A stretch of 64,000 nucleotides of DNA from a virus: positions 19,877-83,876 of the IMG/VR virus record IMGVR_UViG_3300009117_000047; one strand, 5' to 3'. The notes beneath the pieces are model-generated. The model was not told the origin of the DNA. It made no database searches and saw only the letters and a program-made list of their open reading frames with translations. A program made the position numbers and the translations under genes. This document shows positions 2,418 to 61,409 of this stretch, one piece after another. How positions within the stretch are numbered: the stretch's first letter is position 1; each line of letters starts with the position of its first letter.

Positions 2418-2814
2418 AGTTCCTCCATTTAAAATTTGTCATTTATTCAAATACTACATACATAACCAATCCATCATGTGAACCTTCTTCATTAATTATC
2501 AACCTATCTCCATTTTTTATATCTTTTAAGTTATCAAACTTTTCTTTATCTATAGAAACTATATATGTATTTCCTGTATTCAATATCTATATTCCTCCTC
2601 ATAAAACTCGCATTTTATTACTGGCTTTTTCTCTTGTCTTTGATATGTAAATACAATAATCCGCAAAATTGATTGATGATACAATATATAATTATTGGAA
2701 TGAATGAATCGCAAGTAGATGATAAATACATTCCTATTGCCAAAAATATAATCCAATATAGCTTTTCAAACTTACTCATATATTTCTTTTTCTCCTCCTA
2801 ATCAAAAATTAATT

Positions 2815-3180
2815 TTATTCCCAAATATCTAACAATTCATAGTCAACAGTTAGAATTTCTGTATCAAAAGTGTCAATACAATCAAACCCTTCTAAATCTT
2901 CAAATGTTCCATTTTTAATTGCATCAATAACAATTTCTTTAGATTCTGCTCCTGCTACACATCTTAAAATTTTAAAACCATGAGCCACTTCAAAAGCAAA
3001 TGTTTTCATAATGTTTTCTCCTTTACTTTCCGTCAATATCACTGCCGATGCAATATTCGTATCTTTGTTAAAACACTTAATCACCACAAAATCATCCATC
3101 ATTCTTCTATCTACTGCTATTTTCACTTGCATATCTTTTGGAAACCTTGCCAATTGATAAATCAAATCACTTACTTTCAC
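2815..3180 (-). CDS. hypothetical protein (internal SD+ATG at 3009)
   Basis: ORF track; GTG start with SD; second in-frame start. Confidence 0.6.
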   Translation of the reverse strand: MKVSDLIYQLARFPKDMQVKIAVDRRMMDDFVVIKCFNKDTNIASAVILTESKGENIMKTFAFEVAHGFKILRCVAGAESKEIVIDAIKNGTFEDLEGFDCIDTFDTEILTVDYELLDIWE

Positions 3181-3433
3181 CTAACCCCTCCTTAATTAAT
3201 ATCTTTTTTATGCTCGACTTCTAAAATCATCGTAGTCATAATATTCTTCGTCAGTTTTAAACAAATCTATAAATAATAGTTTGGCGGTCATATTTTCAAT
3301 CGGTAGATATTTTTTATCATCAATATAAACGTATCTATCATTTAAAAATCGTTCTATTCTTTGCAATGTTTCTTTTCTATTCATAACATACCTCGTTAAA
3401 ATTGGACTTTTATTTACATATTTACTCAGATAT

Positions 3434-3727
3434 CTATTCTTCTTTTAAGTAATCAAATGTTTCAAATCTATATTTTTGTTTAATGTCTGGATATTTTTCA
3501 TGATCAACTTTTTCCATAAACATATCATACGGTCTTGCGTAAATATCATGATCGACACCTAATTCTTCATTCTTATATAATGCTCTGTAAATAACTAATT
3601 TTTCTTTTGTTTCAGTATGAGTTGCAATTGCTTCGATTATATATAGATAGTCCATTGACTTTTCAGGCTCTCTAATTGTTTCTCGTTTAAAATGCTTTAC
3701 AATGTCGCAACATTCTAATCTTCCCAT
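3434..3727 (-). CDS. DUF1653 family protein
   Basis: VKHFK...HTET.E.LVIYRALY...YARPYDMF...KYRFE. Confidence 0.85.
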   Translation of the reverse strand: MGRLECCDIVKHFKRETIREPEKSMDYLYIIEAIATHTETKEKLVIYRALYKNEELGVDHDIYARPYDMFMEKVDHEKYPDIKQKYRFETFDYLKEE

Positions 3728-3763
3728 GCATATCTCCTTCCATCTTAAAACACTTATTTTATT

Positions 3764-3982
3764 TTATTTATCTTGTTGTCCATAGTAATAGTCTTTTATG
3801 TATGGGCTTAATTCAAAACCCTTACAACTACGTTTTTCATACATGTCGTAACTAGGAATTAACCAATGGTTTCCACAAAATCGCTTTGTCTTATTAAATT
3901 CAATTGCGCTAATAATATTTCCACAACCTTCAGCGGCTTTCATTGAATTAGAACAGTTATAGCAACATCTTTTAGGTTTCAT
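3764..3982 (-). CDS. hypothetical Cys-rich protein
   Basis: ORF track; flanked by two TAAAA-N6-TTTTA sites. Confidence 0.65.
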   Translation of the reverse strand: MKPKRCCYNCSNSMKAAEGCGNIISAIEFNKTKRFCGNHWLIPSYDMYEKRSCKGFELSPYIKDYYYGQQDK

Positions 3983-4029
3983 TCTTGCTCCTTTCCGATA
4001 ATGATAAAATCAACTTTTTATTTGTATCT

Positions 4030-4296
4030 TCACGCCATTACCAATCTGATATGCTCAGTCATATTCTCCAACTCTTCATCTGAATAAATAGATAATGTTG
4101 TCATGTCTGGAATAATAAGAATTCGCCTATCCTTGAATTGATGTTTGAGTATATTCATTACATTTTTTAACTCTCTTTGACTACAACTATTTTTACAATA
4201 TTCTAAAACAATAACATCTGAATCTCGTGGAGTAAGCGAATAGATACTCGTAAAAAGTTGTTGCTTAGATTTTTTCTTTCTAATTCGTTTATTCAT
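4030..4296 (-). CDS. hypothetical protein
   Basis: ORF track, SD. Confidence 0.7.
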   Translation of the reverse strand: MNKRIRKKKSKQQLFTSIYSLTPRDSDVIVLEYCKNSCSQRELKNVMNILKHQFKDRRILIIPDMTTLSIYSDEELENMTEHIRLVMA

Positions 4297-4315
4297 AATC
4301 TTAATCAGCCTCCTT

Positions 4316-4828: not shown

Positions 4829-4862
4829 TATACCTCCTACTTAAAATCTAAATTTTAATGTT

Positions 4863-9577: not shown

Positions 9578-9823
9578 TTTTGCTCCTCCTTTATACTTAA
9601 AATCACGTTTCTATTGCCTTAGTTGGCATTTGTAGTAAATCATGTAAACAATTACACTTATAACTACGAGCATTAGATATACTCCTATTCCATAACCAAT
9701 ATTGGTATTTGGAAATACTTTTTATAATTTTGGGTATAAATAAAACACCAATTTTATGTCCATTTTAATACTATATATTGTGTTTACTTTCTATTTATTT
9801 ACTATATGTAGTATATATTTTTG

Positions 9824-10743: not shown

Positions 10744-10771
10744 ATTAGTTTCTCCTTTTAAAATTTCGGTT

Positions 10772-11344
10772 TTATTTGCTCAATCTACCATCATTCCCAA
10801 TAACTCTATAACTCTTTAATACTTCCATTTCTTGTTCATATGTATCACAAGCCAATAACATTGTTTTGATTTCACGAATTGAATCACCGAGTTTCCTTGC
10901 TTTAGCATCTCTTTCTTCTTCTACTGATTTTAGTTGCTCCTTCGTTTCTGGTGTAATATATAATTCTTTATCAATATGAATAGAAAGGTCGTAGCTATCA
11001 TCTATATACAAATCTTTAATGGTTTCATTTGCTTCATTAATACTTTTCATTAATTTAGTTACTCTTTCATCTGCTTCAACCAGTTTATTAATCTTTTCGT
11101 AATATTCATTTTCTACTTCAATGAGTCTTTTCTTAAAACATAAATCAACAATTCCTTTTGTCTTAATCTCTTTCATATTATTATCCTCCTGTGTAATCTT
11201 ACGTGCCATTTCATATAGTTCATCTTCTAACTTTTCCAAGTTGTCATTTTTACATGTTAATTTTATATTTTTAATTTGCAGTGTTAATCTTTTAAATTCA
11301 ATAATTTCTTCAACAGTTTTTGGCTTATATTGATCTTCAAGCAC
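10772..11344 (-). CDS. coiled-coil hypothetical protein (internal SD+ATG at 11176)
   Basis: ORF track; flanked by sites at 10759 and 11361. Confidence 0.65.
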   Translation of the reverse strand: MLEDQYKPKTVEEIIEFKRLTLQIKNIKLTCKNDNLEKLEDELYEMARKITQEDNNMKEIKTKGIVDLCFKKRLIEVENEYYEKINKLVEADERVTKLMKSINEANETIKDLYIDDSYDLSIHIDKELYITPETKEQLKSVEEERDAKARKLGDSIREIKTMLLACDTYEQEMEVLKSYRVIGNDGRLSK

Positions 11345-21135: not shown

Positions 21136-21324
21136 TTATCTTATTTCTTTAATTTCTTTTTCGATTTGCTCAATATATTTTATTTTGTCTAAAAGCTTAT
21201 CTTTGTATTTTAAAAGATTATTATGGTAATCAGATATAGCTTCTTCTTCTGTTGACCCTGAACCCCAAATGTCAATAATATTCCAATCGCTTACACTATA
21301 ATATTCTTGTTTCTCAACTTTCAT
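21136..21324 (-). CDS. hypothetical protein
   Basis: ORF track, SD. Confidence 0.65.
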   Translation of the reverse strand: MKVEKQEYYSVSDWNIIDIWGSGSTEEEAISDYHNNLLKYKDKLLDKIKYIEQIEKEIKEIR

Positions 21325-21336
21325 TTTTAGACTCTC

Positions 21337-22119
21337 CTACTTTAATAATTCGATCACGAAAGTTTTAAGGGGCTCTTTGAGTTCCATATTTTTATTCATC
21401 CATTCAATATAATCTTTATGGTCTTTGAAAACATCTTTAATCAATAATCCTTTATGTTTACCAAACGTCAATTTATATGTATTAATATCTGGTTTAGGTA
21501 GCGATTCATCTTCTATATTTGCATCTCCTAATACCTCTTTTAGCTCTTTTGGAATAATCATGTCAATATCATTTCGTGAACTTAAAATATCACACTCATG
21601 TATAAAAAATTCCATATCATTTCTTGGTTCTGGCATGATTTCTTTTCCTGCTCTACTTTTATTCCATTCTCCAGAATGAGACTCGCACATGCAAGCAATC
21701 ATTTCCTTATGCTCATCGGAGATATTATGATTAACTTTTGTTGTTCTGACCCATTCAGCGGCTAACATAGGATGGTCTTGAACTGTATATTTTGAGCCGT
21801 TTAATCCGCACTTAATCGCATCGTGAAAAAATGGAACACACCTCATGCAGTCTCTAATTTCTGGTGTAGGATATTTTTCTCTATTACTTTTCAGTCTTAA
21901 ACGATGTTCCATAATTGAAGCAAACATATATTCATGATATAATTGTCCAAATTTCTGACATTGCGTAGCATTATGGTATTTCATTGATGTACTAGCTGGA
22001 ATTAGAAAAATATAATCAGGAATTTCTTCGCACATGTCTAAAAAATAATTTTTAATGTTATCTGTTTCAAAATTATTTGCTGCAATTTCAAAAATTTTTC
22101 GTTTATCTTGTTTATCCAT
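21337..22119 (-). CDS. HD-domain phosphohydrolase with C-terminal FGKHKG motif
   Basis: PASTSMKYH, FHDAIK, H.G.W, IHECD; LTFGKHKG. Confidence 0.75.
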   Translation of the reverse strand: MDKQDKRKIFEIAANNFETDNIKNYFLDMCEEIPDYIFLIPASTSMKYHNATQCQKFGQLYHEYMFASIMEHRLRLKSNREKYPTPEIRDCMRCVPFFHDAIKCGLNGSKYTVQDHPMLAAEWVRTTKVNHNISDEHKEMIACMCESHSGEWNKSRAGKEIMPEPRNDMEFFIHECDILSSRNDIDMIIPKELKEVLGDANIEDESLPKPDINTYKLTFGKHKGLLIKDVFKDHKDYIEWMNKNMELKEPLKTFVIELLK

Positions 22120-22131
22120 TTATTAATCTCC

Positions 22132-22668
22132 TTATTTTAAAATGTAATTATCCAAACAGTTTTTGCAAATCTCGTAAATAAACTTTCCCATATTTTCTTT
22201 CTTCACAAAATTCAAATAAAAATCACTTCGTTTTTGCCATGTTAATAATGTTCTTAGGAATGATAATTCGTTATAGTCTGTATCGTAATTATGCTCCATG
22301 ATGTCGTCTAATCTATCGTTCTCTATCACGATATAAACATTTTTAACATTAATCATTCTGTTTAACTCTTTCATAAATCTATCATCTTTTTGATTATTAG
22401 AAAGATTTCCTGCTAATTCTTTGACTCCATTTTTTCTTTCAATGATTAATTCATCTGTAAAATATGTATCAACTAAAAACCCAAGTTCAGGGCAAGCAGT
22501 AATCATCATAGAATAATCTCCCGTCTTAAGAGATTTCTTTTTATGGCTAATACTTGCCTTGTCAAAATATTCTAAAATATGATCGTTGCATTGTTCTTTG
22601 GAATCGTGCAGAATAATAAGGTGGTTCAATAATTCTTTGTATGTTTTATCAGTATAATAGTGCTTCAA
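22132..22668 (-). CDS. ERCC4-domain nuclease (probable resolvase)
   Basis: DSKEQ...GDY...IERK ERCC4 signature. Confidence 0.85.
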   Translation of the reverse strand: MKHYYTDKTYKELLNHLIILHDSKEQCNDHILEYFDKASISHKKKSLKTGDYSMMITACPELGFLVDTYFTDELIIERKNGVKELAGNLSNNQKDDRFMKELNRMINVKNVYIVIENDRLDDIMEHNYDTDYNELSFLRTLLTWQKRSDFYLNFVKKENMGKFIYEICKNCLDNYILK

Positions 22669-22682
22669 TATTTGTCCTCCAT

Positions 22683-25600
22683 TTAATCTATTTTCTTATA
22701 ATCTTTAATCCACCATTCAAATGTATCTGGTACAACCTCCCAGTCATCGCCAACCTTCCTTTTCTTTGGTTGTTTTTTATAATCTTTAATATAAATAACG
22801 TCTCCATCTTGAAACGGGACTTCACTAAAACTTGTTACAATTTGTTTATCTCGTTTATTAATTTTACTATGAACTTTCATTTCTGTTATTTTGCCCTTTT
22901 TAATACAATAGGCATTAAATTTAGGAGAGTATTGTGTGTTTAAATCTGTAATAACCACATAATTCCACTCAAGATTTTCATCTATATAATCAACATAATT
23001 CAAAACTTCATACTGAAACTTGGCTAACTGACAAGAATGGTACTCTTCTTCTGATAGGTTTAAACACAGCTCTTTTACTATCCCAACCCAATTTACATTT
23101 GTAAACTGCTTGTCGCTTACCTTGCCAGACTTGGTAATGTCCGTAGCATATTTATAAATATCAATATCATCTAACCCCAGCTCCGAAATATTTGATTTTG
23201 AAATAGTTTTTCTACCTTCTCCGTTAGACCCTTTCCATTCATCATAAATTTCAACACACTTTAACAGTTTTTTAATTGATCCAAAACGCTTAAAATATCC
23301 TATCTTAACCAGTTTTGTGAATACTGACGCATTTATTTTTGTTCCTTTAATTGAATGGTAAATATTAATAAAATCATCTACTCCGCTAAAATAAATCTCC
23401 ATCATGCTATTTACTGCTTTATCTCCAATGCCCTTAACACTTGACAAATTTGGATAAATAGTTTTTGTTTCATCTTCTACGGTGAACTTAGAATTGTCTT
23501 TACCATATTCAAATGTACCCATTTTATATCCAAAAACATTCATCGCTTCTTTTGTTAACGCAGCTACTTTATTTTTATCTCCTTTATCTTGATAGTGATT
23601 TAAGGTAACTTCATAAAATTTCGATGTGTGATGAGCTTTAACCCACGCTTCATAAAGAGAGTCGTTTGCCATCGCAAGAGCATGGGGAGCGTTAAATGAA
23701 TATCTTGCACTATCTTTAATTACTTGATATACTGGCTCGAAATTGTCTAAGTTTCCAATATTTTTAAGCCAATGTTCTTTTAACGTGTCTTCGACATGTT
23801 TTAAAGCTTCACCCTTTAATTTCTTCTTGCTAATTTTTTTAATAGTGTCATAGCTATCTTTCATTAAAATACCAAGCCAAGAAAAGATTTTCATAACAGC
23901 TTCTTGATACAGCATATAATGGAAGCAATCTTTCAATAAATCATCAATTGTTTTTTCTCCGTTGGTATACTCAACCCTATTTAAAAATCCTTCTAATAGC
24001 GATTTAAAACCGGGACGAATACCAGCGATAAAAGCTGCTAATTCCTTAATTTCTTTTGGCTTATACTTCATTACTCTTTTTGTGGTGGCAGGTTTTTCAC
24101 ATTGGTTAAGACTACAAGTCGCTCCGATTTCGTACATCTTCCATGTAGCTTCATCATTTTGAACCATCTTTCTTAATTCTGACACTGTAGGCACTTTCAT
24201 TCCAATGCTTTCATAAAGTTTATAAATAATGCCTACAACGTCAACAATAAGAAAATCATCTTTTACATACCCGTAAGCATCTAATAATCCACCTTCAATA
24301 TTGGCAACTATTGTGGATTTTCCCGTACTTTCAGAATAGCATCTAATCAAACCAATTTCATATCGTATATCTCCATACCCTACTACGTCATCTTGTCTCG
24401 GATTCCCATTGAACAACATAAATCCACAAGCATGACATTTAGCTTGTTCAATAATTCCTTGATATGATTTACTATCATTAAATATTTTTAAGTGTTCAAT
24501 ATCGGTAATATAATCTTTGATATGAATATCTTTTTTATCTTCTTCATCATCTACTTGTTTTAAAGCTTCGTTATATTGGTCGATGCACTTAGAAATCTCA
24601 TTTGCAACACTAGGTTCAATCCCTCTAATGTCTGCATATAATTTAAAACCTGATTTTTCTCCTAACTTTCCTACTGCTAATAAAGGATAGCAACCATGTT
24701 CTCCAAAAATTTCTTTACCTGCATTAACAAAAGGTTCTTGGCTTGAAACATTGAAATCTATATCGGGCATTTGATGGGAACTTAAAATACGATCTTTTGT
24801 AACAAAACGCTCTGGATAAATTGGAACTTCTGCTTCAAACCTATCCATAGTGGTAAACCCAAGTAATTTACTGGAATAATAAGAACTTGCGCTACCTCTT
24901 GACGTAGGAGTTAGTTGTCCTCCATATTTATTAATAGCAAGGTCAACTAAAGCATAGTTATCTAAAAAATAATCAGCAGTTTTACTTCCATCTATTTCTC
25001 CATATTCATATTCCATCCCATCAAACCTATCTTGTGTATGGTGTTCTTCATCTTCTTGATGGAATTTTTCATGTAGTATTTTTTTTAATAATTGAGAACG
25101 CTCTTCGTAATTATAATTTCGATAATCAGGATGAATTGGTATTTTAAATCCTGTGTCATATGAAATATCTTCGCATCCATCAATAAACACATGAGTATTC
25201 ATCATTGAGTATAGTATTTCTTCATCAGGTAAACATCCTTGTTCCTTCATTCTCTGAAAAACGGTATTACCATCAGGAAAATCCATGTACCAACCATCTT
25301 CTTCAGGATAACAAATACCTTTTCGTAGCAAAAGATTCTCTCTTTTTACCTTGTCTTCATCATTTATGTAGTGAGTGTCCAATCCAATAATTGTTTGAAT
25401 TCCAAAAGTCTTAGATATTTCATAAATCCGATTATTTATTTCTTTCTGTTTGGTGGTGTTGTTAGTTTGATATTCGAGAAAAAAACTATCCCCAAAATGT
25501 TTCCATATGTTTAGCCAAATTTCAGTAGCGTCTTCATATTTCCAGCCCGCAACACATGCTGAAGTTATATAAACATCATCTTTGCTTAAAGTAAATAAAG

Positions 25601-26150
25601 CAGCTAAATCAATTCGTGGTTTATGGTAAAATCCTTCTTCGTGAGCGCAAGACAATATGTAGTTCAGCTTTCTCATAGCTTGATAATTCCTAGCTACAAT
25701 TACCATATGGCAATTTGTATTATCTTTTTTTTCTCTTGTTTTTGTTTCTCCTGTTTTCTTATCAATGTATTGTTCTTGAAAAACTGTAATTGCATCCTTA
25801 ACCCAATAAGCTTCTACTGAGTATCTAAACTTAATCGGATTTTTAATCTTAAGGTTTTTTCTTCCATCCTCTGTATCAGTTTTTTTACATACGTCATATA
25901 CATGTAGCCATTCACCTGCGTACCCATGTTCTCCAGAAAAATAACATTGACATCCATAATCGTCGGATAATTTAATAAAATCATCAATACTTGTAGCAGA
26001 GTCTATTTGAACTAAATCTGACCAAGTGGTGTGTTTGTGATAATTTTCCATCATCATGTTCATATCATTTGCCCAAGTTTTTAAATCATACGGGAAGTTG
26101 AAGTTTAATCTATCATTTGCCTTTGTCAAGAGTGATAAGTCAACGGTCAC
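22683..26150 (-). CDS. dnaE: DNA polymerase III alpha subunit (C-family, PHP domain)
   Basis: N-terminal PHP, RGSASS, MPDIDF, KDDFL, YSFNAPHA, VKGIG HhH. Confidence 0.95.
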   Translation of the reverse strand: MTVDLSLLTKANDRLNFNFPYDLKTWANDMNMMMENYHKHTTWSDLVQIDSATSIDDFIKLSDDYGCQCYFSGEHGYAGEWLHVYDVCKKTDTEDGRKNLKIKNPIKFRYSVEAYWVKDAITVFQEQYIDKKTGETKTREKKDNTNCHMVIVARNYQAMRKLNYILSCAHEEGFYHKPRIDLAALFTLSKDDVYITSACVAGWKYEDATEIWLNIWKHFGDSFFLEYQTNNTTKQKEINNRIYEISKTFGIQTIIGLDTHYINDEDKVKRENLLLRKGICYPEEDGWYMDFPDGNTVFQRMKEQGCLPDEEILYSMMNTHVFIDGCEDISYDTGFKIPIHPDYRNYNYEERSQLLKKILHEKFHQEDEEHHTQDRFDGMEYEYGEIDGSKTADYFLDNYALVDLAINKYGGQLTPTSRGSASSYYSSKLLGFTTMDRFEAEVPIYPERFVTKDRILSSHQMPDIDFNVSSQEPFVNAGKEIFGEHGCYPLLAVGKLGEKSGFKLYADIRGIEPSVANEISKCIDQYNEALKQVDDEEDKKDIHIKDYITDIEHLKIFNDSKSYQGIIEQAKCHACGFMLFNGNPRQDDVVGYGDIRYEIGLIRCYSESTGKSTIVANIEGGLLDAYGYVKDDFLIVDVVGIIYKLYESIGMKVPTVSELRKMVQNDEATWKMYEIGATCSLNQCEKPATTKRVMKYKPKEIKELAAFIAGIRPGFKSLLEGFLNRVEYTNGEKTIDDLLKDCFHYMLYQEAVMKIFSWLGILMKDSYDTIKKISKKKLKGEALKHVEDTLKEHWLKNIGNLDNFEPVYQVIKDSARYSFNAPHALAMANDSLYEAWVKAHHTSKFYEVTLNHYQDKGDKNKVAALTKEAMNVFGYKMGTFEYGKDNSKFTVEDETKTIYPNLSSVKGIGDKAVNSMMEIYFSGVDDFINIYHSIKGTKINASVFTKLVKIGYFKRFGSIKKLLKCVEIYDEWKGSNGEGRKTISKSNISELGLDDIDIYKYATDITKSGKVSDKQFTNVNWVGIVKELCLNLSEEEYHSCQLAKFQYEVLNYVDYIDENLEWNYVVITDLNTQYSPKFNAYCIKKGKITEMKVHSKINKRDKQIVTSFSEVPFQDGDVIYIKDYKKQPKKRKVGDDWEVVPDTFEWWIKDYKKID

Positions 26151-26151
26151 A

Positions 26152-26943
26152 TTACTCTCCTCCCATCAACTTATAATCACAGACATTTCTAAACCCACAC
26201 AAATTGTTACAGTAGAAATAACTTAAATTAGGAAGAAAATTTTCGTCATTATGTATTTCACCGATTAATTCTACCGCCCATTTTTTCGCTTCTTCGTATT
26301 CTTCTTTAATAAAAGGCAATTTAAGCCACTTTTGATCTTTGAAATAATTCCAGCAAATATGGCTTGGATACACTCCGTACTCTTTATAAACTTGCTCACA
26401 GTATAAATATAGTTGTTTTTTATAATTATCATAATCATCTTGCTTCTTTTTTAAAACCTTACCTTTTTTCCCAATGGGGTACTCACTAGATTTATGGTCG
26501 ATTACGATAATTTCTTTTGTTTCCTTGTGTTGAACCAATAAGTCAATAAATCCAATAAATTTAATCTTGTTGATTGTAAATAAGCACTTCTTTTCTATTC
26601 CTAAAATCTCGTAATCATCTAACCATCCTAAATCTAAATTTTCAAAATAATCTAAGCCTAAATAAAAATTCTTTTCAACGGTACTTTCTGCTGTTCCATA
26701 ATCATTTACCTCCTCATAAAATTTTTCATTATAATAGTCAATCGCTTCATTTAACGTAATTTCTTTTTTAAATATCTTTTCTAAAATTTCATGACAAAAC
26801 TTACCGAAAGCTGCATAAAAATTTTGTTCATCAGATTCCTTTTCAATATATTTTAAATAAAATGCATAATTACAATTTTCATAGCTATGACACCTACTAA
26901 AACTCCAAGTCATAGCATTCAACTCTTTTGTATAATCACCCAA
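26152..26943 (-). CDS. PD-(D/E)XK nuclease (AddB/Cas4-like, Fe-S cysteines)
   Basis: WSFSR..C, GFIDL, IIDHKS, QLYLY, C-terminal C...C.....C. Confidence 0.85.
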   Translation of the reverse strand: MGDYTKELNAMTWSFSRCHSYENCNYAFYLKYIEKESDEQNFYAAFGKFCHEILEKIFKKEITLNEAIDYYNEKFYEEVNDYGTAESTVEKNFYLGLDYFENLDLGWLDDYEILGIEKKCLFTINKIKFIGFIDLLVQHKETKEIIVIDHKSSEYPIGKKGKVLKKKQDDYDNYKKQLYLYCEQVYKEYGVYPSHICWNYFKDQKWLKLPFIKEEYEEAKKWAVELIGEIHNDENFLPNLSYFYCNNLCGFRNVCDYKLMGGE

Positions 26944-26954
26944 TTAATCACTCC

Positions 26955-27962
26955 TCATGTTATCTTTTTTCTATTGGCATATAATTCATTCCAAATTTCT
27001 ATTCCACAATCTATTGGAGAATTTTTTGCTTCCTTGCCACCCAATAACGTTTTAGGGTCTTCTATGATATAAACATTCAAAAACCTTTTTAATGTTTCGA
27101 TATTTTTTCTCACTTCTCTGTCTTTATAGGAAACGTCTGAGTCATAACACAAAACAACGTCTGCTCCTATTCTGATAAGTAGCTTTATTTGTTCTATTGT
27201 AAGAGTATGTTTTTCGGCAGATGCAGAATCTTTGATACCGTATTTCATTAACTTCATACCACTTTTTATACTCTCAAATATCTTTATTTCACTTGTTTCT
27301 TTTATAAATGGCAAAGTTATATTTAGCCCCTGAAAATAATCCATCTCTCCAACTTTGAAATAGTTAATGTATTTGCTTATTCCCATTGCCTTATAGTTCT
27401 CATATCTGGTTCTACCCTTTATGTTAATTAGGTTGCCTTGTAAATCATAAACTGGATACACTATTCTATTGCTTCTATGGTCGACTCTTATATCAAATAA
27501 ATCCATCTCTTCTTGTCCAATACCTTCATCTAACCATTCTGGGATTTTTTCTTTTGTATATTTTTCAAGTTCTTTTTTATCAAGAATTTCATGTGTGATG
27601 ATATTGGGTTTTTGTTTGCATTTTCTAATTGTCTTATTTATCTTTACTGTTTCAGATTGACACATTTTACTTATATCAATACTGGCAAGTTGTGAAGCTT
27701 TTAAAACTGCATCATCATAACTAAGGGATTCATATTCAATCAAAAATTGTATGATTCCACCACCTCGCCCGCACCCAAAACAGAAAAAGTTATTTTTTTC
27801 GGGAGTAACTGAGAATGATGGCGTTTTATCTATATGTAAGGGACAATTTCCAAAATAATCTCTTCCTTTTGGCTTAATATCTATTGATTGCTCAACATAT
27901 TCGAGTAAATTAACATTATCGCTAATTTCCTTAATCATGTCTTCATCATACGTACCAATCAT
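26955..27962 (-). CDS. dnaG: DNA primase (CHC2 Zn finger + TOPRIM)
   Basis: CPLHIDKTPSF...CFGC; IFES; YDSD; start placed at ATG after AAGGGGGTG. Confidence 0.9.
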   Translation of the reverse strand: MIGTYDEDMIKEISDNVNLLEYVEQSIDIKPKGRDYFGNCPLHIDKTPSFSVTPEKNNFFCFGCGRGGGIIQFLIEYESLSYDDAVLKASQLASIDISKMCQSETVKINKTIRKCKQKPNIITHEILDKKELEKYTKEKIPEWLDEGIGQEEMDLFDIRVDHRSNRIVYPVYDLQGNLINIKGRTRYENYKAMGISKYINYFKVGEMDYFQGLNITLPFIKETSEIKIFESIKSGMKLMKYGIKDSASAEKHTLTIEQIKLLIRIGADVVLCYDSDVSYKDREVRKNIETLKRFLNVYIIEDPKTLLGGKEAKNSPIDCGIEIWNELYANRKKIT

Positions 27963-27978
27963 TCTCACCCCCCTTATT

Positions 27979-29325
27979 TTAATCAAACGGTGTCTTTGCT
28001 TCATGTTGTTTTGCTTCAATAATCCCAACTTTTTCTTTTGTAAACATCATGTCAATATATTCATTTTCTCTATCGTGCTGTAACCCTAATCTGTTTAACT
28101 TAACTTTTAACTTATGAGTACCACAATCTGACCCATCACGGATAATTTCTTCTTCTGTTTTTTCTTCCCATTTCACAGCAACGGAACAATATTTTTCGAT
28201 ACCATCAGATTCAGCAACTTCATTCAATCTGTTTAGTTGGCAAAAAGCTAATACAGATAAATTTAATTCTCCCGCAATCGTATTTTTTAACCAATTTGTT
28301 CTACCAGCCATGTAAGCACTTCTTTTTGATGACTCAAGAATCGAATCATCACACTTGATGTAATCCCAAACAATAAATTTTAAACCCATTTCTATTTTCT
28401 TTTGTGCGCATATAGAGTAAAATCTTTCATTGGTAATATAAGGATCATACAAGTGATAAAGCGGAAGTGATTTAAATAAGACATTAGCTTTAGATATTTT
28501 AGCGATTTCATCAGTTGTTTTATTATTGCTTTTAATCCTATTAACTGAAACGCCCGATATATAAGACAACGCTCTAATATAAAAATTAAAATCTGACATT
28601 TCACTATCATATAACATGGTAGGAACACCATTCATTGCTTTATGTAGAGCTTCAATTAAAGCTAACCAACTCTTACCTTTTTTCATTCTGGCTTCAATTA
28701 TTATCAATTCTGTTTCTTCGTAAGAAAAATAGTTGCTAACTGTCGGAAAAAATGATGGAAGCCCAAATAGTCCATTACTTTGCAAGCTATCATTTAACTT
28801 TTGGTATAAATCATCAATTTGCTCTCCAAATAATTTGACTTCTCCATCTGTTACATACTTAATCGTAAGTTCATTAATTTCCTTATAGACTTTATTGTTC
28901 ATAGTATCTAACGAAGTTTCTTTGTTGAAACACATTCTTTGCCAATCTAATGTCTTTTTATAAAAGTCTCTTTTGAAAGATAATCCTACAATTCTACTGA
29001 CTAACATCATATATTCTTCAACAGTATCTCTTTTGGATTCCACGCATAAATCTATGTATTCTTGAATGCTTGGCAAATTATATTTTTCAATTGTTTTTTG
29101 AACTCCAGCGTGAGAATTTAGCATGTTTTGAATATTAAAAGCATCAATGTTAGTAATCTTTTTCCTATACAATTCTTTTATCGCCCAATAAATACAAGCA
29201 TTATCTTGATTGTAAAAATATCTTTCATGTAAAAAATTGCTATGCAGTATAAACTCTGGATGGTAAACCAGTGTAGCTACTACCCCTGCTTCTGCTTGGT
29301 AGTCTGTAATTTCCGAAATCTCCAC
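27979..29325 (-). CDS. dnaB: DnaB-like replicative helicase
   Basis: DnaB-like N-terminus AEAGVVATL; Walker A ARMKKGKS; DSEM; WDY; CQLNR. Confidence 0.85.
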   Translation of the reverse strand: MEISEITDYQAEAGVVATLVYHPEFILHSNFLHERYFYNQDNACIYWAIKELYRKKITNIDAFNIQNMLNSHAGVQKTIEKYNLPSIQEYIDLCVESKRDTVEEYMMLVSRIVGLSFKRDFYKKTLDWQRMCFNKETSLDTMNNKVYKEINELTIKYVTDGEVKLFGEQIDDLYQKLNDSLQSNGLFGLPSFFPTVSNYFSYEETELIIIEARMKKGKSWLALIEALHKAMNGVPTMLYDSEMSDFNFYIRALSYISGVSVNRIKSNNKTTDEIAKISKANVLFKSLPLYHLYDPYITNERFYSICAQKKIEMGLKFIVWDYIKCDDSILESSKRSAYMAGRTNWLKNTIAGELNLSVLAFCQLNRLNEVAESDGIEKYCSVAVKWEEKTEEEIIRDGSDCGTHKLKVKLNRLGLQHDRENEYIDMMFTKEKVGIIEAKQHEAKTPFD

Positions 29326-29807
29326 TAAATACCTCCCAATAAATTGCCAAACCCCTTATCCTTTTCTGCGTTATATGTAAATTTAACTTCTTGCGTTTCG
29401 TATTCTTGATTTTGTGATTTTTCCTTCATTTCTTCTACGATTTTTTGCGCCATTTTCTTTTCCCATAACTGTTTAATACGTTGATTATCAATTAAATAAT
29501 GTAATCCGTATGGGCTTTTTACAGATATTTTTGCAGAAATAGCATGATTTAAGGCAAATAATAAATATCCTGAATCTACGTTTTTCTTAAATACAATGTT
29601 GTTAATAGTATTTATAAGTTGAGACATTACAACTGTTTTACTAATTTTTTCGTAATATAAATCTCTAATTTTTGTAAGGTTTCCACTTGTTTCTGCACAA
29701 TCTTTGTGCATATATCTATTACCAATTTTTACAGCTTCGCCCTGCGATAATTCGCAGGACTCATGCTGGCAATGTTTAAAACTACACTTATATGTTTTTT
29801 CTTTCAT
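29325..29807 (-). CDS. hypothetical replication-associated protein
   Basis: Coupled to helicase; N-terminal Cys/His motif. Confidence 0.65.
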   Translation of the reverse strand: MKEKTYKCSFKHCQHESCELSQGEAVKIGNRYMHKDCAETSGNLTKIRDLYYEKISKTVVMSQLINTINNIVFKKNVDSGYLLFALNHAISAKISVKSPYGLHYLIDNQRIKQLWEKKMAQKIVEEMKEKSQNQEYETQEVKFTYNAEKDKGFGNLLGGI

Positions 29808-29819
29808 TTAAACGCTCCT

Positions 29820-30218
29820 TTAAAATGGAAGGTCGTCATCTTCAACACTCTCGTTTATTGGATAATAACCATCTGTTTTTGCTGACGGATCTGGCTTTGG
29901 TGTTGTATTTTTTGTCCCATTTTCTTTTTTATCATTTTCTTCAAAACCAAAAACTACATAGTTTGTATAAGTCGTATTTTTATCTTTGTCGTATTTGTTG
30001 GTTACTTCACACGCACCAATTTTTACATTATGAGTAATATCCAGTTTATCTGCCTGATTGTGAGCAGTTCCTACAAGTCTAACAAATTTATTAGACCAAT
30101 CTGTTTCATACTGGTCTGTATTTTTATTTTTCTTGCTAGTAGACATTTCTGCCACATGATAATTTCCCTTATTTTCTAATTTCCAAATTTTAGCGAATCC
30201 ACCTTGTTTAAATCCCAT
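29820..30218 (-). CDS. ssb: single-stranded DNA-binding protein
   Basis: OB-fold-sized, acidic tail DDDLPF. Confidence 0.75.
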   Translation of the reverse strand: MGFKQGGFAKIWKLENKGNYHVAEMSTSKKNKNTDQYETDWSNKFVRLVGTAHNQADKLDITHNVKIGACEVTNKYDKDKNTTYTNYVVFGFEENDKKENGTKNTTPKPDPSAKTDGYYPINESVEDDDLPF

Positions 30219-30247
30219 GTTATTATCTCCTTTAATATGTAGTATTT

Positions 30248-30841: not shown

Positions 30842-30854
30842 TGAATAATCCTCC

Positions 30855-31289: not shown

Positions 31290-31562
31290 AATTTCCTCCT
31301 ATTTTATTTTCATTATCTATCCAAACGCTTTCAGCGATTACATAAAATAACTCTATGTGAAATCTATATAAACACTCTTCCGAGTGATTTTAAGATATAC
31401 GATAAAAAATCACTTTTATTGCTATTTCTATTCACAATTAATGGAATTTTATGCAAATTTCACTTATATTTGTTCATAATCTATGGTATTTACTCTCGTT
31501 TTCTGTATAAAACATATGTATTGTTTACATTTTTGTTTTAAATTAGAGTTTATTAGTTATGT

Positions 31563-41975: not shown

Positions 41976-42004
41976 GAGATTCTCCCTTGCTTAAAATAGT
42001 TCTT

Positions 42005-42718
42005 TTAACTAGCCTTATCTATGTAATCATTTTCTTCCAGTAAACCAATAATCCATTCTCTACCTTTTTCACTAAATTTCAACGTTTGACCATGTTCATT
42101 AATTGTATAATCTGCGTATTCTGGAATTCTGTTTTCATGTTCGGCATATAAGTACCATGTTCCACTCTGTTTGTAGACAATATGTAAATCGTGCAAAATC
42201 TTATTAAGTTTCTGTGCTGACATTTTCAAGTCTTTTGCAATAGCTGTTACTGTGACATATTTTACATATCCTTGCTGTTCAGCTTCAGCATTTGGATTCA
42301 ATACCTTTTGGTAATATTCTACTTGTGGCTGCATTAACGCCTTTTCTTCTTCAGACTGAACTAACGCTTTGAGAGCTGACAAGTAATCTTGTGGCAATTG
42401 TTGCATTGTAACTTCTTTCAACTTATTTTCACAAGCAATAAAATATTGTCTTGCCTGTCTACCTTTTTCGTTGTTCTCAACCATAGACAATTCTTTTGCC
42501 ATATCAATAGTTAAAGCATAATCATACTCATTTTGACCTCTATTGCACTGTACTAAAATTTTAGTATAGTCAAAATCTTCTTTGAACTCGTATTTTTTAA
42601 CACGATTTAAAATCCAATCATTGAATCTACTTTTGACTTCCAAAAACTCATGTAATTCTCTACCACTTACTAATCTTCTTCCGCTGTTATCTGTTGTAAT
42701 TTTAATTAAATCGTTTAT
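42005..42718 (-). CDS. phage antirepressor (AntA/AntB N-terminal + KilAC C-terminal), ATA start
   Basis: VSGRELHEFLEVKSRFNDW...DYALTIDMAKELSMV...GRQARQYFI; TAIAKDL.MSAQKLN..L. Confidence 0.85.
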   Translation of the reverse strand: MNDLIKITTDNSGRRLVSGRELHEFLEVKSRFNDWILNRVKKYEFKEDFDYTKILVQCNRGQNEYDYALTIDMAKELSMVENNEKGRQARQYFIACENKLKEVTMQQLPQDYLSALKALVQSEEEKALMQPQVEYYQKVLNPNAEAEQQGYVKYVTVTAIAKDLKMSAQKLNKILHDLHIVYKQSGTWYLYAEHENRIPEYADYTINEHGQTLKFSEKGREWIIGLLEENDYIDKAS

Positions 42719-44123: not shown

Positions 44124-44160
44124 TACAATCCTCCTTTTTATCGACTTTAAAACTTCTATT

Positions 44161-44637
44161 CTATGGTAAGATTCTTATAATTTCTTTTCCAACCTTATCA
44201 GCGTATTTTACACAATTTCCAGTTCCACCTTTACTACCATCCCATACAGCAATCACTTTATCAGCCAAATCAACCATATATTCATTTCGTTTCTGCATTA
44301 GCCAAGGTTTATACTCTTCCTCAGAAACAAGCTTTACAATATCTGCTTTAGATAATATTTCTTCATATAAGTCTTGGCTCTCTTTAATCCATTTACACGA
44401 ATGATTCTTACACGGAATTGCACAATGTAATTTAATTGGATATCCTTCATTCTTTAGCTCTAAAACTGCTAACGCAAATACCGTATCTACACCAAGAGCC
44501 ATTCCGCTAATTGCTTCCTCACATTCGTTTTCTTTCAACAATTGCTTGAATTGATTTTTTAATTTAATCCATCTTGAATCTTTTAAATTGTATCCGTAAA
44601 GTTTGTTAGGTCTATGTCCTGTTACACTAATTATCAA
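44161..44637 (-). CDS. SLOG superfamily protein (DUF1273/YspA-like)
   Basis: SVTGHRP, GMALGVD, RNEYMVD, AVWDGSKGGT. Confidence 0.85.
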   Translation of the reverse strand: MIISVTGHRPNKLYGYNLKDSRWIKLKNQFKQLLKENECEEAISGMALGVDTVFALAVLELKNEGYPIKLHCAIPCKNHSCKWIKESQDLYEEILSKADIVKLVSEEEYKPWLMQKRNEYMVDLADKVIAVWDGSKGGTGNCVKYADKVGKEIIRILP

Positions 44638-45656: not shown

Positions 45657-46652
45657 TTAATTATTTAAAAAATACGGAATTAATCGCCTTCTAACATCAT
45701 TTGCCCGATATTGACAATTTGTTCTCGCCATGATGATATCGATATTTACATTGGCAGATACGATATTATCTTCTTTAATTAAGTTTCTAATTTTTTCAAT
45801 ATCACCACCCATGTAATCAAATAAAATCTTGAATAAATAACTATTTCTCAATATTTCTTCATTGATTTCGCTACCAATTATTCTTTCAATCTCTGAGAAT
45901 CTTGATGAGTGTATTGATTTCGCTATCGTGTAATAAGTGTTTCTATCGTTTTTCCAGACATTTTTGTTAGGCTTCGTTGGAAATTTATATAAAGAGCCAT
46001 ATAAATCCTCTAATCTATATTTTATTTCTCTTACACCAGACGCCCCTAGTATAGTAACACTTTGCATTTCATGGACACCTACTAAAATATCTTTTAATTC
46101 ATTTGAAATTGGTAGCTTATAATCACCCAAATCTAAAATATTTTTACGAATGTCCAAGTCAGTATATTTTAATTCTATAAACTTCATAACGCTTGGTACT
46201 CCTTCGTACAAAGCTCTTATTATTCCCTCCAAATAGATTAGATAAAATGATCCTCTCAAACGCACAAAGATGTCATTCATTTCATCGGGAGTATATAATA
46301 TTTTATTGTCGGGTTTAATATAGCTCAATATAGCCATATCTGATAATAATTTATTGTTTTCAGCAATTGGATTTCTGTCTGAATATCCATTTTTAATACA
46401 CCAATCAAAGAAATTATTATATTTACTTTTTATTACACTAATTTGAGCCATATTTCTCATATTTTCTCCATTTATTTTTAACAATGAAAAAAACTTAAGC
46501 AAATCATCTGCATTAAAATTAAATATAGTTTTGTTAAACTCATTCTCGCAATCATAGAGTTCTTCCTTAAATAAAGAATTCCAAATGGAGCTATTATTTT
46601 TTTTACTCAAAAACTCATCAACGATTTGTTTCGTTTCCACAAGATACCACAA
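45657..46652 (-). CDS. tyrosine-recombinase-fold protein lacking catalytic residues (SPbeta YopR/SroF-like repressor candidate)
   Basis: Core-binding N-domain (FFDWCIKNG..RNP); box I reads ALYEG (no TGxR); box II reads EEILRNS (no HxxR). Confidence 0.65.
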   Translation of the reverse strand: MWYLVETKQIVDEFLSKKNNSSIWNSLFKEELYDCENEFNKTIFNFNADDLLKFFSLLKINGENMRNMAQISVIKSKYNNFFDWCIKNGYSDRNPIAENNKLLSDMAILSYIKPDNKILYTPDEMNDIFVRLRGSFYLIYLEGIIRALYEGVPSVMKFIELKYTDLDIRKNILDLGDYKLPISNELKDILVGVHEMQSVTILGASGVREIKYRLEDLYGSLYKFPTKPNKNVWKNDRNTYYTIAKSIHSSRFSEIERIIGSEINEEILRNSYLFKILFDYMGGDIEKIRNLIKEDNIVSANVNIDIIMARTNCQYRANDVRRRLIPYFLNN

Positions 46653-50320: not shown

Positions 50321-51337
50321 TCACGCTGTTACCAGTTCATCAAAAGTCTTACCAAACTCTTTATCAACTCGTTTCAACACCTCGAAAAAATCTTCTTCGT
50401 GTTCTACCGAAATATACATCTTAACGGTAGTCTCATAGCTTTTATGATTCAACATTTTCTGAATTGTCACCAAATCTGTTCCCTTGGCATACATATCACT
50501 AGCAAACATATGTCTCATCATATGAGGATAAACGCCGTCTCCATATCTATCAAATTCATTCTTTAGCGACCTATAAGACAATCTATTCATTCTTACAGAC
50601 AAGAATAAAGCATTGTCATTCACCTTTATTTTCTTTCTCATTTCTACATATGGTCGGATATATTTAATTGCTTCTGTTCTTATTTTAATTCTCTTCCTTA
50701 CTTCCGTGTATCCTTTACGCATGGTCAGAACATAGGGTGATTCCTCGTCCAAATATATTCCATCAATGTCAATCCCAATCAATTCTTCTGATCTCATTCC
50801 AGTTGCAGCAAGCAATGTTATCATTGCCACATTTCTAACTTGCTTAAAATTATCGAGTATGTTATACAAATTACTCATAAAAGTGTTAATCTGAGTAGCA
50901 GTAGGGATTTCAACACTGTCAAACTCTCCATCCTCAACGCCTTCATCTTTATATTTTTGTCTAGCAATTGTTTTTGCTATATTATCATCTGCAATTTTAT
51001 AAATTTTGAAGTAATCCCAAAGAGAAGAAATAACTTTCTTTTTAGTTATTATTGTACTCATTGAGTTTTCGTTTTTTAAAGAATCAAGATAATTTGTAAT
51101 GTGTAAATCGTTAATTGGTTTCATATCATCTGGTTCAATTTTATCTATGCTATGTTTATTTATGATATTATTATTGATAAACCACTCAAACATATTGTTT
51201 ATAATACTAAAGTTAGTAATCTTTGTTGAGTTAGCTGGCAATCTTTCAAAATATTTTTGAAGGAACTCTGGATAATCTTTGATTTTTTCTTCAATTCTGA
51301 GGCTATCTTTCAACTCTCGTTCCTGTTTATAGCACAT
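50321..51337 (-). CDS. tyrosine recombinase/integrase (XerC/D-like) with intact catalytic set
   Basis: RNVAMITLLAATGMRSEEL (R), TMRKG (K), PHMMRH (HxxR), LNH, TTVKMY (Y). Confidence 0.9.
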   Translation of the reverse strand: MCYKQERELKDSLRIEEKIKDYPEFLQKYFERLPANSTKITNFSIINNMFEWFINNNIINKHSIDKIEPDDMKPINDLHITNYLDSLKNENSMSTIITKKKVISSLWDYFKIYKIADDNIAKTIARQKYKDEGVEDGEFDSVEIPTATQINTFMSNLYNILDNFKQVRNVAMITLLAATGMRSEELIGIDIDGIYLDEESPYVLTMRKGYTEVRKRIKIRTEAIKYIRPYVEMRKKIKVNDNALFLSVRMNRLSYRSLKNEFDRYGDGVYPHMMRHMFASDMYAKGTDLVTIQKMLNHKSYETTVKMYISVEHEEDFFEVLKRVDKEFGKTFDELVTA

Positions 51338-58781: not shown

Positions 58782-59036
58782 TTAAATAATTTTTATAAAA
58801 TTCGCAGACAATAATTTTCCTTCAATTTCTTTTGCATTCTTACATCTTTGTAAAATCACGTTTCTCGTCCAGTTAGGGCGATTCAAGTTGTTTCTAAAAA
58901 ATTCCTTTTGAAATACTTTTATTCCTCCTGCATTCTCAAATATTGCTATTTTACAAGGCGTATTGCACATAGTAGGAATAGTCCCAGCGTATAAGGCAAT
59001 TAAATTTTTCATACTGTTATACCTCCAAGAATTCAA
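58782..59036 (-). CDS. hypothetical protein (start probably MKNL)
   Basis: ORF track. Confidence 0.6.
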   Translation of the reverse strand: MNSWRYNSMKNLIALYAGTIPTMCNTPCKIAIFENAGGIKVFQKEFFRNNLNRPNWTRNVILQRCKNAKEIEGKLLSANFIKII

Positions 59037-59448
59037 TATTTTTCTTTGTCATATCAATTACATTGTTTAAATAATCAATTATCCATGTGTCGCAGGTTTT
59101 CTTTTCCTGTTCAATCTTCTTGATATACAATTTCATTCTAGGAATTGCAACACTTAAATCAATTTTGTTTTGAGAAATAATATTTGTTAATTCCTTGATG
59201 TCATCTTTAAAAATATTGCAACCGTATGATCCTTGTAACCTTTCGGCTACTTTCAAAGGTTCTGTTATAGTATTCCCTGTAAAGTTATGACAACCGTCAC
59301 CAATACCGCAAGTAACGGCTATTACGTTAGCCATATACATTCCGTCACACAATCCAGTAATTGAAAAACGTATCATAATTTTTGATACAATTTCCTTTAT
59401 ATTTTCTGGTACAGTGTAACCCTCAAATTGTTTTTCATATATTTTCAT
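59017..59448 (-). CDS. hypothetical protein
   Basis: ORF track, SD. Confidence 0.7.
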   Translation of the reverse strand: MKIYEKQFEGYTVPENIKEIVSKIMIRFSITGLCDGMYMANVIAVTCGIGDGCHNFTGNTITEPLKVAERLQGSYGCNIFKDDIKELTNIISQNKIDLSVAIPRMKLYIKKIEQEKKTCDTWIIDYLNNVIDMTKKNIEFLEV

Positions 59449-59462
59449 AGTGTTATGCCTCC

Positions 59463-59867
59463 TTAAAATCCCATTTCATACTCATAGTTACCAACAATTA
59501 CATTATATGCGTCACAGTAATTCATACCATATATAGCTAATTTTTGAATTACATCGTCAAAATCGGTGCTACTTACTCTGTTATGATTTTTGATTCTGAT
59601 TACACCCAACTCAATAAGACCATTTCTTTCGCTTTCTCTTTGCTCCTTGTAACTGATTTCTTCACCTAACAAATTTCTTTCTTTCAAAGTAAAAAATGCT
59701 TCTTTTACAGAATGATAGCCCATATCTGAAAAGGTTGTTTTGTACGGATTTCCAAAAGGGAAACCGTGTTCTGAATCTACCGTATATTGTAAAAATGTGT
59801 TATTGTCTTCATCAAAAATTCTGATATAGTTCCAGCCTTCTTTTGTTACTTGTTTAAATGTTTTCAT
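59463..59867 (-). CDS. hypothetical protein
   Basis: ORF track, SD. Confidence 0.7.
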   Translation of the reverse strand: MKTFKQVTKEGWNYIRIFDEDNNTFLQYTVDSEHGFPFGNPYKTTFSDMGYHSVKEAFFTLKERNLLGEEISYKEQRESERNGLIELGVIRIKNHNRVSSTDFDDVIQKLAIYGMNYCDAYNVIVGNYEYEMGF

Positions 59868-60096
59868 GTTTATCTCTCCTTTTCTTGACTGGAAAAGGCT
59901 CAGTATGCTAATATAGCATTAACTAAGCCTTTTGGTTATAGTTGTATTGTTTAGGGTGCAGACGTTTTAGAGGACTGCTACACCCTATTTTTTATTTGTT
60001 GCAATGTGTTGCATAAATGGGCAACTGGATTATGAATCCGTAGGCTAAACCGTTACCCTGTTATAGATATGAAAACCTCCTTTTATTTGATTAAAA

Positions 60097-60318
60097 TTAA
60101 ATTGTATCTGTATAGTGAGCTGGACAATTTAAAACATTTTGAATTTGCTTTACAAAATAGTCTTGTATTGCTTGCATTACTTTTCTCCATTCGTCACGGT
60201 TTATTATTCCGTTCTGCAATAATCTGCCACAAAATACCTTATTATCAATTGTCTTTTGTTGTAATATGCCTAAATTACCATTATAAGAAAATTCAATATT
60301 AATTAATTCATTTACCAT
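60097..60318 (-). CDS. hypothetical protein
   Basis: ORF track, SD. Confidence 0.65.
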   Translation of the reverse strand: MVNELINIEFSYNGNLGILQQKTIDNKVFCGRLLQNGIINRDEWRKVMQAIQDYFVKQIQNVLNCPAHYTDTI

Positions 60319-60439
60319 TGTTATTTCCTCCCCATATTTTCAAATGTTAATAGTGTTCAATGCTTGCGGACTTGTGACCGTTTGACGTGTGTCAAGTGCA
60401 TTAAAACGGCTGTGTAGCCGTTTCACTCTGCAAGAAATA

Positions 60440-60913
60440 TTAATATCCTCTATTTGCTCTAAATGTTGCTGTATAATGATTTCTTTTAATCTCATAATTA
60501 CTAGGAAATCTATATTGTAAAAATTGAGGAATAACAACTTTTGTAAAATGTTCTACAAAAGCATCTATTGTAGATATACCACAATCAAACATGTAATTAA
60601 CAGCATCATCAATTTCCTTATTTGCTTTGTCAAGTTCACTCTTATCATAAGAAGTCATTCCTTCTCCGTTCCTATGTGTTATACTGTCAGAAAAAGAAAT
60701 GTTTTCGCCTCCCATTCTATCAGAAAACCATCTAAAATTGAGTCTCCATGTATTATCTTTTCCCTCCACTTCTTTAGAAATCTTGTACCCTTTTCTTTCT
60801 GTTCCTTCGATAAGTCCATGAATTAAAGAAATATATTCATTTCTCATATTTTCCTGTTCCTTTGTTTCTTCTAAAACTGCATTGAGTAATTCATCAAGTT
60901 TTTTCATATTCAT
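60440..60913 (-). CDS. hypothetical protein
   Basis: ORF track, SD. Confidence 0.7.
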   Translation of the reverse strand: MNMKKLDELLNAVLEETKEQENMRNEYISLIHGLIEGTERKGYKISKEVEGKDNTWRLNFRWFSDRMGGENISFSDSITHRNGEGMTSYDKSELDKANKEIDDAVNYMFDCGISTIDAFVEHFTKVVIPQFLQYRFPSNYEIKRNHYTATFRANRGY

Positions 60914-61409
60914 TTATCCTCCTATAGCTAAAATATTGATTTGAAGTTGTGTTAATATTTTGCGTTATGCCATTCCCCATCGAAAGCTGATAAAACTGTT
61001 ACCCCAAAAGCTCTTTGTTCTTGTGTCATATATTTAAACTTTATCCCAAACATTTTTTGTAATTCTGCTATTGCACATATATTCTTACCTGCTGCAATTT
61101 CTATAGCTAATTCTTTTGGTGTTTTCATATTTAAAACCTCCTTAAGTTTGTGTTATTGCTTTTTATTACTTTATTCCAGCCTAAAATATTGAGCGGTAAT
61201 AATACCAACTTTTAAATTTATAGTCCTGTAATATTCTTAATACTAAGCGTATAGCCTGTATTAGTAAGTAGAATTTGCAGTGTTCACCTTAAAAGATTTT
61301 AAGCTGAGTATAAAACAATAAAACTTTGTTATTCTTCGCTTATATCACATTCCTTTTTGAATTGCAGTTGACCGCAATTTGTTGCTGTTATTGCTATTTT
61401 GTTTCAAGT

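Follow-up and report, generated by a model that had tools for sequence, protein, structure and literature searches.

The DNA analyzed here is a 64,000-nt stretch (the window, bases 19877–83876) of the 135,850-bp virus record IMGVR_UViG_3300009117_000047, in which a 16-bp palindromic site, TAAAA-N6-TTTTA, recurs between the co-oriented genes of an early cluster. With moderate confidence, we consider these sites to be conserved joints between gene cassettes that are exchanged in register. The phage of the window is SPbeta-like, and its genome layout parallels that of Bacillus phage SPbeta. Within this phage family the sites seem to behave as addressed cassette-exchange joints: in relatives, aligned genomes show them persisting as islands when both neighboring genes have been replaced, and recombination in the laboratory occurs at or beside them. 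The phage of the window, whose sites have an identical anatomy, probably works as its relatives do.

Perfect copies of the motif number 36 in the window, against 1.94 ± 1.35 (maximum 7) in dinucleotide shuffles. Scanning spacers of 0–14 nt gave 0–4 copies per spacer, and N6 alone gave 36. The whole record holds 43 perfect copies, 36 of which belong to the minus-strand early cluster of about 125 co-oriented genes, and despite a coding density of 85% only 6 of the 43 lie wholly within open reading frames (ORFs). When up to one mismatch is allowed, the window contains 59 intergenic sites (2430..60944, minus strand), 33 of them perfect, whose cores are mutually different without a single repeat. 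The gaps of the early cluster are of two kinds: junctions that are short or overlap lack a site, and 28 of the 33 gaps of 31–60 nt contain one with at most one mismatch. The perfect copies start at positions 2602, 3397, 3746, 4005, 4842, 6291, 7838, 9345, 9741, 10759, 11361, 13983, 14737, 16201, 19652, 20029, 22039, 31403, 32675, 33563, 34911, 36151, 37092, 38479, 41992, 42860, 44653, 44862, 48774, 51568, 52998, 55024, 55966, 56239, 57006, and 58238. An initial annotation of the window had listed 35 perfect and about 20 near-perfect sites, mostly intergenic and with differing cores, and had put the chance number at about two; our counts come close to all of these figures, and the 6-bp spacing it described stands out as a single peak among the spacers scanned.

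Read on the coding strand, the layout consists of an upstream stop codon, the 16-bp site and a Shine-Dalgarno (SD)-like tetramer. In 13 of the 59 cases the site opens with the stop codon of the upstream ORF (TAG in TAGAA arms included), close to the number of about 15 proposed earlier; in a further 17 this codon ends at most 6 nt before the site. The SD-like tetramer begins 0–3 nt past the site in 29/59 and no more than 13 nt past it in 47/59. As an example, the site at 10759..10774 (minus strand) has the TAA stop of the upstream ORF as its first three coding-strand bases and an SD 2 nt after its end. Likewise on the minus strand, the site at 41992..42007 overlaps the stop of a 212-aa ORF (42005–42643), and a one-mismatch site at 44148..44163 has a TAGAA arm of which the TAG is the upstream stop. 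The median inter-site unit measures 716 nt; 23 of these units contain one called gene and 19 contain two. A 10.3-kb replication module (21139..31402, minus strand), encoding DnaE, a PD-(D/E)XK nuclease, primase, DnaB and others, is without intergenic sites; homologues are found in relatives for 8 of its 9 called genes, versus about 15% in the site-delimited units.

SPbeta itself carries 34 copies of TAAAA-N6-TTTTA, against 0–4 at any other spacer, mostly after stop codons in the early cluster; some occur at the ends of operons or between genes that converge, where no SD follows. Relatives at 67–78% DnaE identity mostly lack the TAAAA motif. These phages contain GAAA-N6-TTTC, which holds the same position between stop codon and SD and reaches 38 copies in G002 and 32 in G004, versus 4–13 at other spacers. 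This form is present at 20–38 copies in 6 of 20 records (G001–G004, G007, and G015), versus 5–9 in controls. The motif type does not track phylogeny, as the phage of the window and the very distant SPbeta are of the TAAAA type and nearer relatives of the GAAA type. No description of the motif turned up in the SPbeta review, the YonO paper, the MrpR and SroF papers or full-text literature searches.

As the phage of the window has no close relative in the collections searched, breakpoints were analyzed in seven SPbeta-group phages that share the motif, using SPbeta 82–98 kb and the matching parts of phi3T, Goe11, Goe13, BUCT082, SPbetaL4, and SPbetaL8. The ends of BLAST homology blocks were located within −40..+55 nt of a site in 137 of 278 cases. 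With the site occupying offsets 0–15, left ends pile up at −2..0 and right ends at 13..17, and in the alignments identity begins or ends exactly at the 16-mer, core included. After identical events had been collapsed, 22 of 108 intergenic ends fell at the edges of perfect sites, versus the 1.6% expected if ends were evenly spread over intergenic bases. Right ends halt at the last base of the site though 5–25 nt of non-coding spacer remains, which indicates that coding constraint alone is insufficient for such precision. Identical 16-mers were compared in 121 phage pairs: both 40-nt flanks were homologous in 20, one flank in 58 and neither in 43, and about 0.5 chance matches are expected in all. 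The order of the cores is identical in the seven phages (TGTAAG, GATGCA, GTAAAA, AGACTG, GATAGT, TATTTA, ACGATA, GTAATT), and the DNA between consecutive cores is often wholly unalignable (0% in many pairs); the GATGCA-GTAAAA interval, for instance, measures 796 nt versus 2238 nt in 8 of 15 pairs. The gain and loss breakpoints predicted by the initial annotation are thus found at the sites in the SPbeta group. They recur more weakly in the GAAA lineage, where G001 and G002 share 9 identical, collinear 14-mers (0.48 expected), with both flanks homologous in 2. Around DnaE in relatives there are few sites, too few for block ends to be informative.

Laboratory recombinants of phi3Ts and SPbeta provide a second line of evidence. 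Dragos et al. list 16 homologous junctions and one non-homologous junction (bioRxiv 10.1101/2020.05.06.055103, Suppl. Table 1). Fifteen of the homologous junctions involve 400 bp to 19.8 kb of homology, junction 7 (chromosome position 2217032) involves 30 bp, and junction N1 (chromosome position 2170033) has zero homology by the authors' count (bioRxiv 10.1101/2020.05.06.055103). Junctions 7 and N1 are the sole two with less than 400 bp. Coordinates were converted as record = 2,286,449 minus chromosome, derived from yomD-bhlB (2,262,437–2,265,169) in the SPbeta review, which places junction 7 at 69417 and N1 at 116416 of SPbeta. SPbeta sites are located at 69424–69439 and 116415–116430, respectively. 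The same 16-mers occur in phi3Ts at 62423–62438 and 107397–107412, within identical runs of 21 and 18 nt whose flanks are unrelated. We regard the assignment of junction 7 to its site as unambiguous on these sequences, and the junction published as non-homologous can be reinterpreted as site-associated. That identities this short compete with homologies of kilobase length speaks for an assisted exchange. Together with the breakpoints in relatives, these two published junctions on or at sites lend support to cassette shuffling as a way of working, which the initial annotation had put forward.

The mechanism that we propose starts from the structure of the sites: all have a common pair of 5-bp arms, and the 6-bp core is particular to each genome position. 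Arms and core would together make up a stretch of 16–21 bp that co-resident related phages have in common at equivalent positions only, and this restriction would keep the exchange in register. The DNA between two joints could be replaced by unrelated DNA with the gene order unchanged, and the exchange would spare the stop codon on the upstream side, often supplied by the arm as TAA, TAG, or TGA, as well as the ribosome-binding site on the downstream side. Distinct cores within one genome would prevent its own joints from recombining together. A dimeric phage protein would be expected to bind the arms, because their sequence and spacing are strictly fixed and the core is free. We advance only tentatively the further possibility that SPbeta-type phages carry some 40–60 heterospecific recombination sites, a natural multi-lox scaffold in which a putative phage protein binds the common arms and the 6-bp core serves as the overlap region. 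Recombination would then be confined to equivalent joints of two genomes in the same cell, partners for exchange would be set by their arm type (TAAAA or GAAA), and unrelated accessory or anti-defense cassettes could frequently be swapped in register without deletions inside one genome.

A protein of the tyrosine-recombinase fold is the leading but unproven candidate for the putative arm binder or enzyme; at least one Pfam Phage_integrase protein is present in 20 of 20 relatives, and the record encodes three Pfam tyrosine-recombinase proteins. Annealing by the phage's own recombination proteins (a Sak4-like system) is a fair alternative. The initial annotation had pointed to a 338-aa Xer-like tyrosine recombinase (50321..51337, minus strand), which aligns with Xer recombinases, has the residues R, HxxR, H, and Y, and appears intact. 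This link found no support. Homologues were detected by BLAST in just 2 of 6 compared genomes, the protein is not co-distributed with the motif, its clade is not universal, and the motif type is matched by no clade in a tree built from 23 tyrosine recombinases. A YomM-like recombinase occurs in 6 of 7 other genomes compared, missing only from the partial record G020. In the same tree, however, G004 (GAAA) and the phage of the window (TAAAA) are sisters with 63% identity despite their opposite motif types, so specificity does not track the clade.

Several observations weigh against exchange at addressed joints, and a number of them concern the putative binder or enzyme. Both the 338-aa recombinase and the YomM-like clade were rejected as the motif enzyme, the former for the distribution just described and the latter as it includes phages of both the TAAAA and the GAAA type. 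In SPbeta, the second catalytic Arg is replaced by Lys in both YomM and YopP. A YonV homologue was rejected as binder, being present in 3 of 20 relatives of both motif types, and when all ORFs of G000 were profiled across six genomes, no protein was found to follow the motif type. Searches of viral, genome and metagenome collections and exact protein look-up returned no relative above 79% DnaE identity, and the identical 16-mers that G000 shares with the distant relatives G019 and G008 are near the chance number, non-syntenic and with unrelated flanks. The block-end test is weaker in the GAAA lineage than in the SPbeta group, and even in the latter only about a fifth of the intergenic block ends lie at perfect sites, which means that the sites are not the sole breakpoints. 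For N1, the published phi3Ts coordinate (107382, where AA follows a stop codon) stands 14 nt upstream from the run of identity, which leaves the exact crossover uncertain; a degenerate site next to it, with its shared TAAAA arm, may have been used instead, and under either reading N1 falls at the junction motif. Finally, the presence of a site in nearly every gap suggests a first-order function, such as expression, with recombination as a side effect.

The YonV homologue (L002:1296-2531, record 85172-86407; phrog_2467) has 43% identity over 417 aa (E 8e-98) and is the protein best conserved with SPbeta, with DnaE at just 22% and the YonO-like polymerase at 25%. Among public reads, a single low-share landfill metagenome run contains parts of the window (6% of sampled words); it yielded short contigs with unreliable joints having 21-nt sides only and was not used.

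A function in expression could be exerted on DNA or on RNA. We think it rather unlikely that the sites are operators through which a dimeric phage or host DNA-binding protein controls early transcription, for example by roadblocking, silencing or timing it, and that recombination is a by-product. Such a by-product of short conserved identity has already been proposed for other phage linker sequences, and the fixed arms, free core and strict 6-bp spacing place half-sites 11 bp apart, the geometry of helix-turn-helix dimer operators. The sites are restricted to the early cluster in both the window phage and SPbeta, and their near-universal occupancy of gaps argues for a direct function. Nevertheless, the search for a protein whose distribution matches the motif type gave no candidate, and most sites are intra-operon, against an SD and away from the strong sigma-A promoters, which are few and are marked by another repeat. 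Operators alone would also leave unexplained why identities of 16–21 bp compete with kilobase homologies in the laboratory junctions. A role in RNA seems improbable to us; here a nuclease or a regulator of translation would read a short AU hairpin just 5′ of each ribosome-binding site and thereby process or tune the long early transcripts. The site is always found between stop codon and next SD on the transcribed strand, and the A-T to G-C change in relatives affects both arms and preserves pairing. The same transcripts carry two self-cleaving ribozymes, of the pistol and twister types, in intergenic gaps, and a beta-CASP RNA-type nuclease is encoded, which makes early-RNA processing plausible. 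The predicted hairpins are marginal, however (0 to −0.4 kcal/mol mostly, best −3.9), the loop length never varies, and a conserved stem with a free loop is the reverse of most protein-bound RNA hairpins. Some SPbeta sites, at operon ends or between convergent genes, have no SD after them. On the coding strand, one-mismatch variants are not biased toward G-U pairs (19 A>G versus 15 mirror T>C), an absence of asymmetry that agrees with an operator and speaks against a hairpin. The weak hairpins, fixed loop length and lack of G-U preference favor, short of proof, recognition of duplex DNA by a symmetric protein.

The third alternative is the integron-like system named in the initial annotation, in which the 338-aa recombinase would excise single cassettes as circles and re-insert them at other sites, tolerating differing cores. 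The catalytic residues are present in this protein, the site-SD-ORF-stop-site units with stop codons within the arm resemble integron cassettes, and N1 may have joined two non-equivalent sites via the shared arm. We nonetheless judge it very improbable. The cores are collinear between phages rather than shuffled, neither hybrid cores nor a cassette at two addresses were seen, and at the BLAST level the recombinase is missing from most motif-bearing relatives. The integron label also fails on structure: the sites are 16-bp palindromes with perfect 5-bp arms and a hairpin of about 0 kcal/mol, with no resemblance to a folded attC; several internal sigma-A promoters drive the array, and neither attI nor Pc was found; and the 338-aa protein scores 31 bits versus 265, and 17 versus 435, against the NCBIfam integron-integrase cut-offs, thus lacking an IntI signature.

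If exchange at addressed joints is correct, it would bear on an old open question in phage mosaicism, namely whether conserved linkers guide exchange or random illegitimate recombination is followed by selection. A fixed frame with a position-specific address, in SPbeta and phi3T as well as in distant phages of gut Clostridia, would be a clear case of guided exchange. SPbeta and phi3T are a genetically tractable model in which it is directly testable by crosses. The variable units of the SPbeta group include the known anti-defense genes Gad1 and Gad2, so the joints may serve as a route for trading counter-defense genes. The motif furthermore offers a simple rule to delimit accessory cassettes in such genomes. 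In our survey, Gad1 and Gad2 are annotated between junction sites in the SPbetaL phages (L068 SPbetaL8 and L069 SPbetaL4).

Some local arrangements accompany individual sites. The site at 9741..9756 (minus strand) has a repeated promoter/box element (family D6) about 10 nt upstream of it, an arrangement that recurs at 37092. Two copies of a structured-looking element of about 100 nt, at window positions 9598–9720 and 50175–50300, each end in a TAGAA-type site and adjoin repeated ACAATATATAGTAT boxes. At L003:7341-7378 (record 111217-111254) a pair of junction sites whose cores resemble each other, separated by 6 nt, is located 49–71 nt upstream of the conserved YomM-like recombinase gene, and a terminator-like hairpin follows the pair. 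Two intergenic ribozymes of the early cluster score above the Rfam gathering score, a pistol ribozyme (window 55826–55897, minus strand, 56.3 bits) just downstream of the site at 55966–55981 and a type-P5 twister ribozyme (window 60366–60432, minus strand, 47.5 bits).

The record encodes a 972-aa protein matching Pfam RdRP (L002:4442-7360, 1.8e-15), i.e., a YonO-type single-chain RNA polymerase, as well as DnaE, DnaB, an NAD-dependent ligase, a beta clamp and a C5 methyltransferase. The gene for the beta-CASP/metallo-beta-lactamase RNA-type nuclease (L002:8771-10216) lies about 1.4 kb downstream of the polymerase. Relatives of its DnaE were found in genomes of Lachnospiraceae and other Clostridia, among which the hosts appear to be. 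The first part of the record (1–10000, L001:1-10000) has 38–44% G + C, versus about 30% elsewhere, contains PolA-like and helicase fragments, is followed by a 408-aa integrase at 11486–12712, and may be a neighboring element or host flank. A second repeated element, AAACTCTAATTTAAAA on the coding strand, is located directly upstream of consensus TTGACA-17-TATAAT promoters (window 15488–15519, 15575–15606, 31536–31567, 32019–32050, 32328–32359, 45180–45211, and 45594–45625, also 46682–46732 and 47307–47357). A 331-aa degenerate integrase-like protein (45657..46652, minus strand), assigned to a PHROG integrase family only and without Pfam hit, is the candidate counterpart of the SPbeta repressor MrpR/YopR and belongs to a different motif system. 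The AAACTCTAATTTAAAA element is likely its operator and the counterpart of the SPbeta element SPBRE.

Among known systems, lox and FRT variants and Xer-dif sites consist of inverted arms around an overlap of 6–8 bp; exchange needs identical overlaps, and different spacers do not cross-react. The sites of the window have this core-site geometry, with 5-bp inverted arms and a strict 6-bp spacer, and heterospecific lox/FRT logic would explain both the unique cores within each genome and the in-register exchange between genomes. Known tyrosine-recombinase core sites, in contrast, have arms of 11–13 bp and are present in one or a few copies on each replicon, whereas only 5 bp per arm are conserved here. 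Integron attC sites are imperfect palindromes (R″-L″...L′-R′) that fold as single strands and are recombined by IntI at attI beside Pc. Integrons and the array of the window have in common units between sites that are mostly promoterless, co-oriented and often single-gene, with a stop codon often in the site. They differ in that attC is several times longer and integron cassettes move between positions, while the sites described here are simple 16-bp duplex palindromes in fixed order, with no attI/Pc platform seen.

A dispersed repeat is already known from the same phage family: SPBRE, the operator of the recombinase-fold repressor MrpR/YopR/SroF, is present in about ten copies, all at promoters, and is bound by the protein as a monomer (PMC10516654; bioRxiv 10.1101/2025.11.27.690993). 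It sets a precedent for tyrosine-recombinase folds that read short repeated sites. Its sequence is of the AAATACAAAAAATATGTAT type, unlike TAAAA-N6-TTTTA. We could rule out that the junction motif is SPBRE by reading the SPbeta promoters, as the element upstream of aimR, yonT, yonX, yopV, yopM, yorE, and yonP is a different sequence and both motifs co-exist in SPbeta. Nor is the motif the YonO promoter, since YonO uses a single late-operon promoter (PMC5467207) and the sites are in the early cluster.

The closest known analogue is the promoter-early stem-loop (PeSL) cassette of T4-type phages, in which the small variable genes of hyperplastic regions have short, conserved intergenic motifs on either side (PMC2839356, PMC4122927). 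PeSLs coincide with the boundaries of insertions, deletions and replacements between close relatives and have been proposed as mediators of modular shuffling (PMC2839356, PMC4122927). The sites described here likewise are a conserved intergenic motif at the boundaries of exchanged small genes, and they mark indel and replacement boundaries between close relatives in the SPbeta group and in G001–G003. PeSLs are, however, composite and several times longer, combine a sigma-70 early promoter with a terminator-like stem-loop, and are alike along their length. Most of the sites in our phage have no −35/−10 pair within or beside them; they are 16-bp palindromes without a promoter, and carry as an address a position-specific core, which PeSLs lack.

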